Positions 2,517 to 14,208 of a DNA stretch of 64,000 nt are shown here, piece after piece. The stretch comes from Promethearchaeota archaeon (lineage in GTDB: Archaea; Asgardarchaeota; Lokiarchaeia; Sigyniarchaeales; SOKP01): NCBI GenBank assembly GCA_048941185.1, contig JBHLNW010000009.1, forward strand, positions 5,236 through 69,235, written 5' to 3'. The number at the start of each line of letters is the position of its first letter. The first letter of the stretch is position 1. Both the position numbers and the translations under genes were made by a program. Under the pieces are notes generated by a model. That model searched no databases. It was not told where the DNA came from and worked only from the letters and a program-made list of their open reading frames with translations.

Positions 2517-2644
2517 AAATCACTTCAACTATTTTTATTCTAAAATTAATTCTATGATATTATTCTAATATATCTAAGGATATTCTTAGAATGTATATGA
2601 AAAAACGTAAAATAAATGTTTCACGATCTAAAGAATAAAAATAA

Positions 2645-2829
2645 TGGGCCATCGGGGAGTTTCATGATTGATCTAACCAATCAAGCCATTTCGAACCCCG
2701 GATCTCAGGTTTTTACTAAAATACGGACAATTTTTTCTGTTTTTTGTATGTCCGTAGGTCATTTATAAGACCTGCGCTTGTTGACCAAGCTTTTTTAAAA
2801 CCTTGTTAACCAGTCTGAGCTAATGGCCC
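2645..2829 (-). tRNA. intron-containing tRNA, probably tRNA-Ile (anticodon TAT), with three insertions (D-loop, 37/38, T-loop 59/60)
   Basis: Minus-strand acceptor GGGCCAT (2829-2823) pairs with ATGGCCC (2652-2646); discriminator A2645. D stem GCTC/(A)AGC. Anticodon stem CAGGT (2774-2770)/ACCTG (2710-2706); loop CTTATA|A with TAT at 2767-2765. 52-nt intron at 2763-2712 containing hairpin ACGGACA/TGTCCGT. T stem CGGGG/CCCCG with loop TTCGAA|T split by a 31-nt insert (2689-2659). About 25-29 nt extra in the D-loop (approx 2779-2807). Confidence 0.65.
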
Positions 2830-14077: not shown

Positions 14078-14208
14078 GCAACGGTTGCCTAGCCCGGTAC
14101 GGCGCCGGCTTGGAGCGGAAATATTCCCAGAAAGCCGGTGTGTGAATGCACTCGGGGGTTCAATATATAAGAAATTACTTCTTATAAGAATAAATCCCTC
14201 CCGTTGCG
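14078..14208 (+). tRNA. tRNA-Ser (anticodon GGA) with two introns (37/38 and T-loop)
   Basis: Acceptor GCAACGG/CCGTTGC, discriminator G14208. Anticodon stem CCGGC (14105-09)/GCCGG (14134-38), loop TTGGAG|A with GGA at 14112-14114 and a 17-nt intron at 14116-14132. Long variable arm GTGTGAATGCAC (class II). T stem GGGGG/CCCTC, with the loop TTCAA..AT split by a ~30-nt insert (about 14164-14193) containing hairpin TATAAGAA/TTCTTATA. Confidence 0.8.

Follow-up and report, generated by a model that had tools for sequence, protein, structure and literature searches.

Multi-intron tRNA genes, hidden D-arm introns and an (αβ)2 form of the splicing enzyme EndA have already been published for Asgard archaea. 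In Atabeyarchaeia and Freyarchaeia, introns are reported in 92–95% of tRNA genes, with several introns in more than half (Valentin-Alvarado et al., 2024; PMC11291895), and a further study describes D-arm introns that sit at bulge-helix-bulge (BHB) motifs and are systematically missed by annotators (bioRxiv 10.64898/2026.10.13.758758, 2026). The main text of the latter makes no mention of Lokiarchaeia. A different line of work concerns the decoding of AUA: of 167 archaeal genomes surveyed, just 2 had tRNA-Ile(UAU), those of Nanoarchaeum equitans and Korarchaeum cryptofilum (PMC6000648).

Here we analyze a tRNA-Ile(UAU) gene with three introns from a Lokiarchaeial (Asgard) archaeon, Lokiarchaeia being the class also named Promethearchaeia. 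The gene occupies 185 nt on the minus strand (positions 2645–2829) of the window, by which we mean the whole 64,000-nt stretch of DNA analyzed. It resembles the published Asgard multi-intron genes (PMC11291895; bioRxiv 10.64898/2026.10.13.758758) in having short (~20–50 nt) BHB-type introns at non-canonical D- and T-arm positions, and the likeness extends to D-arm introns that annotators miss, a two-paralogue (αβ)2 EndA and the lack of intron copies elsewhere. Unlike the published focus on Jordiarchaeia and Atabeyarchaeia, the host belongs to a Lokiarchaeial genus and the gene is a UAU isoleucine decoder. Also unlike the published cases, a single orthologous gene is followed here through 69 sequences, which display five intron sites in ten combinations.

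The locus also recalls tRNA genes of Thermoproteales (Sugahara 2008; Fujishima 2010), which, as cited in later work, carry up to three BHB or HBh′ introns per gene in the D, anticodon and T arms, are served by a heterotetrameric EndA with a specificity loop and show precise intron presence or absence between relatives. Thermoproteales introns form recurrent sequence families across different tRNA genes, a pattern read as transposition, whereas the introns studied here have no second copies and come from another phylum. A preliminary description of this DNA had regarded multiple non-canonical tRNA introns as best known from Thermoproteales and a few other lineages; with a host from the Asgard archaea, whose heavily interrupted tRNA genes are already in print, the locus is less exotic than that suggested. 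Its less ordinary aspect is the identity of the gene, a UAU decoder present family-wide together with a lack of TiaS. Like N. equitans and K. cryptofilum, this archaeon combines a genomic UAU anticodon for AUA with a genome in which TiaS is not found, and like the Korarchaeum gene its tRNA-Ile(UAU) gene bears an intron (PMC6000648). In contrast to those two organisms, the Lokiarchaeia show both the tRNA and the lack of TiaS across a whole family, and one to four introns hide the gene.

Read on the minus strand, the locus starts with GGGCCAUUAGCUCAG (5′ GGGCCAT...) and reaches its 3′ end at ATGGCCCA, with CCCCGAUGGCCCA as the 3′ terminus. Excising locus positions 24–50 (27 nt), 68–119 (52 nt) and 141–171 (31 nt) leaves 75 nt, which ARAGORN identifies as tRNA-Ile(tat) with a full cloverleaf. 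The preliminary description had proposed a tRNA gene broken by inserts of about 25–29 nt in the D-loop, 52 nt in the anticodon loop and 31 nt in the T-loop, each forming a hairpin. This anatomy is borne out: a normal cloverleaf appears after excision, the first insert measures 27 nt, the other two sizes are exact and each insert does contain a hairpin of its own.

Exon 1 (window 2807–2829, minus strand, as for all features of the gene) covers tRNA positions 1–21, that is, the acceptor 5′ strand GGGCCAU, U8 and A9, the D-stem 5′ strand GCUC and the D-loop through A21; it is identical or nearly so across the 69 orthologs. The 27-nt D-loop intron (2780–2806; ACAAGG...GGUCAAC) follows between positions 21 and 22. 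Exon 2 (2763–2779), invariant among all orthologs, supplies the D-stem 3′ strand AAGC, G26, the anticodon-stem 5′ strand CAGGU and the loop CUUAUAA, with the anticodon UAU at 2765–2767. After the 52-nt anticodon-loop intron (2711–2762), exon 3 (2690–2710) provides positions 39–59, namely the anticodon-stem 3′ strand ACCUG, the variable loop AGAUC, the T-stem 5′ strand CGGGG and the T-loop residues UUCGAA. The 31-nt T-loop intron (2659–2689) lies between positions 59 and 60, and exon 4 (2645–2658) contributes U60, the T-stem 3′ strand CCCCG, the acceptor 3′ strand AUGGCCC and the discriminator A73.

In the spliced product, the acceptor stem pairs GGGCCAU with AUGGCCC, the D stem pairs GCU(C) with (A)AGC around the D-loop AGACUGGUUA, the anticodon stem pairs CAGGU with ACCUG and the T arm reads CGGGG-UUCGAAU-CCCCG, so that removal of the inserts restores a canonical cloverleaf with a 7-nt anticodon loop and a 7-nt T-loop. 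The UAU anticodon with A73, A37 and A38 gives the tRNA an isoleucine-type body, from which its aminoacylation identity is predicted. The D stem has one C13·A22 mismatch, present likewise in 33 of the 69 orthologs. The exons have a G+C content of 55% against a genome average of 30%, and the unspliced locus folds far more strongly than its shuffles (z = −5.1).

Exon 4 does not encode CCA, and a T-rich run lies directly 3′ of it; T-runs occur downstream of nearly all orthologs of the gene. A TATA-like box, TTTATAATA, is seen about 25–33 nt upstream of many orthologs, the upstream region of the studied gene differs, and such matches carry no weight as evidence in DNA of 30% GC. Just 3′ of the tRNA (window 2606–2628, minus strand) we observed a palindromic element, GATCGTGAAAC-N-(A/T)TTT(T/C)ACG(ATC), which recurs 15–25 nt downstream of the tRNA-Ile gene in many orthologs despite differing flanks and has about five more copies in the genome (contigs C28, C93, C154, C155 and others). 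A terminator hairpin and a site of protein binding are both possible explanations for it.

The unspliced locus escaped the finders that we applied. ARAGORN reported only a tRNA-Sec in the window, Rfam made no call there with the gathering score as threshold, nor with E ≤ 10, and a whole-genome run of the Rfam tRNA model, which placed approximately 29 loci above its cut-off in this 97%-complete genome, did not report it. The expectation that standard finders would miss the locus thus holds for both ARAGORN and Rfam. Two orthologs with two introns (L005 and L023) likewise gave no call with either program; an ortholog with the anticodon intron only (L087), which lies near a tRNA-Sec gene as in the studied window, scored 52.3 bits with the Rfam tRNA model. 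Because ARAGORN and the Rfam model miss the gene, this genome and those of its relatives seem to have a gap in their tRNA sets at AUA.

We scored every boundary pair in the locus against BHB geometry: a central helix (H) of 4 bp, bulges of 3 nt on both strands with cleavage following their second nucleotide, an outer helix (h) in the exons and a further helix (h′) in the intron. The T-loop intron yields the top-scoring BHB of all boundary pairs, a strict hBHBh′ in which H is UUCG/UGAA (4 bp), h is the 5-bp T stem and h′ is UGG/UCA (3 bp), followed by a 6-bp hairpin. The D-loop intron has a relaxed HBh′ motif (4/0/4) with H = UGGU/GUCA, h′ = CAAG/CUUG and h = 0. For the anticodon-loop intron, an HBh′ motif (4/0/3) pairs U33–U36 with GUAA in the 3′ part of the intron, in register 38/39 only, and continues into a 3-bp h′ and an 8-bp internal hairpin (UACGGACA/UGUCCGUA). 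A motif can thus be drawn at all three junctions, one strict and two relaxed, as the preliminary description had proposed to verify; its placement of the anticodon intron at the canonical 37/38 site is disfavored, the relaxed motif fitting 38/39 instead.

This placement is a matter of register. Because an A-run makes boundaries from 36/37 to 39/40 equivalent, the sequence does not position the cut of the anticodon intron uniquely, and registers 38/39 and 37/38 give an identical mature sequence. A one-nucleotide offset of the anticodon stem from this motif puts the 3′ splice site in a 1×2 internal loop in place of a clean 3-nt bulge. Two other sets of boundaries were rejected upon inspection. 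A 42-nt intron built on the 8-bp hairpin (locus positions 73–114) would leave a 17-nt anticodon loop, and a 25-nt excision between the two copies of a D-loop repeat (see below) would give a 12-nt D-loop and would not match the empty sites of orthologs.

Thermodynamic folding gives a mixed picture. When the four exon helices are imposed on RNAfold, the anticodon HBh′ emerges unaided. The unconstrained minimum free energy (MFE) is −59.8 kcal/mol, compared to −45.2 kcal/mol for the cloverleaf with three BHBs, and neither the unconstrained MFE structure nor RNAalifold reproduces the BHB helices of the D-loop and T-loop introns. Such a failure is expected for 4-bp helices and we treat it as uninformative, yet it stands as a caveat. 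RNAalifold offers two alternatives: it pairs GGUC of the anticodon stem with a nearly invariant UGACC in the intron, a helix that it prefers over the anticodon stem, and it pairs intron GCUUG with exon CAAGC. The UGACC element (intron positions 2–6; window 2756–2761, minus strand) is itself a side observation, conserved as (A/U/G)UG(A/G)CC with near invariance in the 69 orthologs. Its complement is formed by GGUC(A) in the anticodon-stem 5′ strand plus C32, and the resulting helix competes with the BHB fold.

Orthologs were collected by BLAST searches of related genomes, with the locus and its spliced form as queries, and by an exact-pattern scan of 185,579 species genomes. The 110 loci with the gene correspond to 69 distinct ortholog sequences, and the named records among them are metagenome-assembled genomes of Promethearchaeota/Promethearchaeia (Asgard kingdom Promethearchaeati), the current NCBI names of Lokiarchaeota/Lokiarchaeia. 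In silico splicing gives exactly 75 nt for all 69 orthologs. When each gene was aligned with the 75-nt product, leaving the motif out of account, we found five intron sites that occur in ten combinations of one to four introns per gene: a first D-loop site (D1) at about 15–17 in 25 orthologs, a second (D2) at 21/22 in 66, the anticodon loop in all 69, the variable loop at 45/46 in 16 and the T-loop at 58–60 in 18. Orthologs with four introns (D1, D2, anticodon and T, or D2, anticodon, variable and T) include L008, L014, L017, L054, L060, L114 and L118, among others. The D1 and variable-loop introns depart from strict BHB geometry at their alignment-defined boundaries.

Two of the three introns of the studied gene are exactly absent in relatives. 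Three distinct orthologs that lack the D2 intron (L040, L049 and L087) read GGTTA|AAGC, the junction predicted by the BHB, and the orthologs without a T-loop intron, which are the majority, read TTC(G/A)AAT, again the BHB-predicted junction. No ortholog among the 69 lacks the anticodon intron, and its boundaries are therefore placed by the cloverleaf and the motif only. The D-loop insert ranges from 18 to 28 nt while the exon frame remains constant. Median identity to the studied gene is 95% for exons and 68–78% for introns, and compensatory changes affect acceptor-stem pairs 3:70, 4:69 and 6:67, as well as 7:66, where both sides are changed in ortholog L087.

The splicing motifs are conserved along with the exons. 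At alignment-defined junctions, the D2 intron forms a 4-bp H helix with an h′ of at least 2 bp in 64 of 66 orthologs, the anticodon intron forms a 4-bp H helix in register 38/39 in 62 of 69, and the T-loop intron combines an H of 4 bp with an h of at least 2 bp in 17 of 18; when boundaries are shifted by as much as 6 nt, this H-helix performance is matched in at most 1.2% of cases. In a MAFFT alignment of 36 sequences, the cloverleaf plus BHB structure has 96.3% of cells paired versus 26–46% with slid partners, and the D-loop motif has its H helix paired in 100% and its h′ in 95% of cells. Twelve pairs show compensatory changes, seven of which are among the eight pairs of the anticodon-intron hairpin, and none of 500 shuffles reaches the observed structure values. 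The 31-nt T-loop intron is homologous across several genera, having the same position, length and covarying hairpin in its 18 orthologs. Such homology suggests either that the intron was gained long ago and has since been precisely lost several times, or that recombination has exchanged it.

The preliminary description had also raised the question of which EndA type this genome encodes. The assembly (3.83 Mb, 174 contigs) contains two tRNA_int_endo genes. A 198-aa paralogue is nearest to the catalytic subunit of the A. pernix (αβ)2 enzyme (3p1z_B, E = 6e-35) and keeps the Tyr/His/Lys residues. Within its loop (...KPR...), a Lys aligns with residue 44 of the Aeropyrum pernix chain, which we take to be the crenarchaeal specificity-loop residue implicated in cutting non-canonical sites. 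In the 202-aa paralogue, Ser replaces the catalytic His, and this protein looks like a structural β subunit. The genome also encodes RtcB (E = 7e-171). EndA would thus be of the two-gene (αβ)2, broad-specificity type, with a substrate range predicted from these features. The same two-paralogue pattern occurs in 44 of 60 Asgard genomes (bioRxiv 10.64898/2026.10.13.758758), and the genome studied here matches it.

We consider it very likely that the locus is a functional single-copy tRNA-Ile(UAU) gene that decodes AUA and has three protein-spliced introns. In silico splicing, the motifs, relatives joined precisely where the motifs predict, covariation and the EndA and RtcB genes all speak for this view and uphold the core of the preliminary description. 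A precursor of about 185 nt would be transcribed, in which each intron and its flanking exon sequence would fold into a BHB, of the strict hBHBh′ form for the T-loop intron and of the relaxed HBh′ form for the other two. On both strands, EndA would then cleave at a point two nucleotides 3′ of the central 4-bp helix. Ligation of the four exons by RtcB would yield the 75-nt tRNA, to which CCA would be added afterwards. The cut site in the anticodon loop and an order of intron removal are presumed parts of this scheme.

Other readings of the locus differ in how much of this scheme they give up. A decaying tRNA pseudogene disrupted by three insertions would agree with the rejection of the locus by standard finders and with the C13·A22 mismatch, but it is exceedingly improbable given exons that are nearly invariant in 69 orthologs beside diverged introns, compensatory changes in the acceptor stem and T-run terminators conserved downstream. 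A degenerate copy is also hard to reconcile with a genome in which AUA is common and neither TiaS nor a second UAU tRNA locus was detected. Slightly less remote, though still very improbable, is a real gene from which only two introns are spliced, the D-loop insert being retained in the mature tRNA as an expanded D-loop. The D-loop motif of the studied gene is only an HBh′ without an outer exon helix and is not predicted by MFE or RNAalifold, and tRNAscan-SE has been reported to leave D-arm inserts inside 'mature' tRNAs (bioRxiv 10.64898/2026.10.13.758758). Against retention stand the three distinct orthologs in which the insert is missing precisely at the BHB-predicted junction, the almost complete pairing of the H and h′ helices in the alignment and an insert length that varies within a fixed exon frame. 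Moreover, a D-loop of 37 nt would disrupt the contacts of G18–G19 with the T-loop that tRNA structure requires.

The most serious competitor leaves all three introns in place and concerns only how one of them is removed. Should the anticodon intron be cut at the canonical 37/38 site, by a eukaryote-like ruler or by non-BHB recognition, the product would be the same, since the A-run makes the boundaries from 36/37 to 39/40 interchangeable. The 38/39 motif is imperfect, its outer helix being out of register with the H helix, and the invariant UGACC of the intron suggests additional, unexplained pairing. However, inspection of the coordinates at 37/38 finds only one of four H pairs, as against an H helix at 38/39 in 62 of 69 orthologs with wobble-compatible one-sided changes. 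We hence view a 37/38 cut as a possible but doubtful alternative to BHB-guided cutting at 38/39.

The origin of the introns was considered in light of direct repeats at their junctions. The preliminary description had noted repeats flanking the D-loop and T-loop inserts and had read them as traces of intron gain by transposition or duplication. At the D-loop a repeat exists, TGGTTAACAAG/TGGTCAACAAG, with 10 of 11 positions matching and both junctions spanned; only 0.15% of dinucleotide shuffles produce a repeat this good across the junctions, and 33 of 66 orthologs retain 9 or more of 10 matches. At the T-loop the proposed pair TCGAAAT/TGAAACT is at chance level (best junction-spanning 10-mer identity 5/10), and the shared GAAA is produced by the BHB helix UUCG/UGAA. 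The anticodon intron likewise has a junction-spanning repeat at chance level only (6/10).

The D-loop repeat is in turn entangled with splicing structure. Its halves are structurally constrained by the UGGU/GUCA helix, which has conserved tandem G·U pairs, and by CAAG/CUUG, and it is the cause of the alternative hairpin GCUUG/CAAGC that RNAalifold prefers. The repeat is offset by 2 nt from the two cut sites, and the dinucleotide AC is part of both copies and missing from the empty site. A blastn-short search of the 3.83-Mb genome with the three introns, with and without flanks, found no second intron copy; the matches besides self were low-complexity, at most 17–20 nt long and had E ≥ 0.007. 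Owing to the 2-nt offset and the lack of a second copy, the repeat argues only weakly for transposition or duplication; local duplication is an origin that it would fit but does not demonstrate. Related copies in other tRNA genes, by which a transposing or duplicating intron family of the Thermoproteales type would be recognized, were not found in this genome, in agreement with the view that copying between tRNA genes is not the route of intron gain in Asgard archaea (bioRxiv 10.64898/2026.10.13.758758).

The genome appears to hold further tRNA genes of this kind. At window positions 14078–14208 (plus strand) lies a 131-nt class II tRNA-Ser(GGA) with G73 and two introns, the first 17 nt long at 37/38 with a strict BHB (H 4 bp, h 8 bp, h′ 3 bp) and the second 30 nt long in the T-loop (H 4 bp, h 4 bp). 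Within the window it is called neither by ARAGORN nor by Rfam at gathering score. A scan for acceptor stems and T arms returned at least five further loci of 130–180 nt that resemble multi-intron tRNAs, tRNA-Ser(GGA) included. Four others (C160:68439–68611, C166:13060–13235, C57 15959–16120 on the minus strand and C28 14217–14348 on the minus strand) have an intact acceptor stem and T arm; by eye they appear to be tRNAs, among them class II Leu, each with two or three putative introns. We also applied a SPLITS-like solver, in which acceptor stem and T arm are located and BHB-guided splicing is followed by ARAGORN. As the solver favors the fewest introns and mis-solved the tRNA-Ile(UAU) locus, its census is a list of candidates and gives no intron counts.

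The role of tRNA-Ile(UAU) follows from what accompanies it. TiaS (PF08489; TiaS_FLD) was not found in the 97%-complete genome nor in any of the 25 family genomes searched; the same search was positive in 70 of 121 genomes of the phylum and in 4 of 4 archaeal controls. TiaS is also absent from several other Asgard families. In the long open reading frames of the window, ATA accounts for 41.6 per 1000 codons and for 37% of isoleucine codons. The genome yielded no second UAU tRNA locus, and tRNA-Ile(UAU) was detected in 99 of 126 family genomes. With no TiaS found, AUA common and no other UAU locus, the gene is very probably the sole AUA decoder of the genome and not a pseudogene. Its tRNA is probably essential given the lack of TiaS and the frequency of AUA, and the distribution of the two genes suggests a family-wide switch of the AUA decoding system.

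For this Lokiarchaeial family, in which the searched genomes gave no TiaS, the UAU tRNA is the only AUA decoder found, and recognizing its gene leads to a corrected annotation for a codon that makes up approximately 4% of the total. A more speculative and rather improbable extension can be drawn by analogy to eukaryotic tRNA-Ile(UAU). TiaS would have been lost in the family, AUA would be read by a genomic UAU tRNA as in eukaryotes and the anticodon intron would be kept since the intron-containing precursor would be the obligatory substrate of an anticodon modification (for example, pseudouridylation of U34/U36), with UGACC forming part of the precursor structure. If true, this would represent a eukaryote-like trait of decoding and tRNA maturation in Asgard archaea that extra introns have hidden from annotation.
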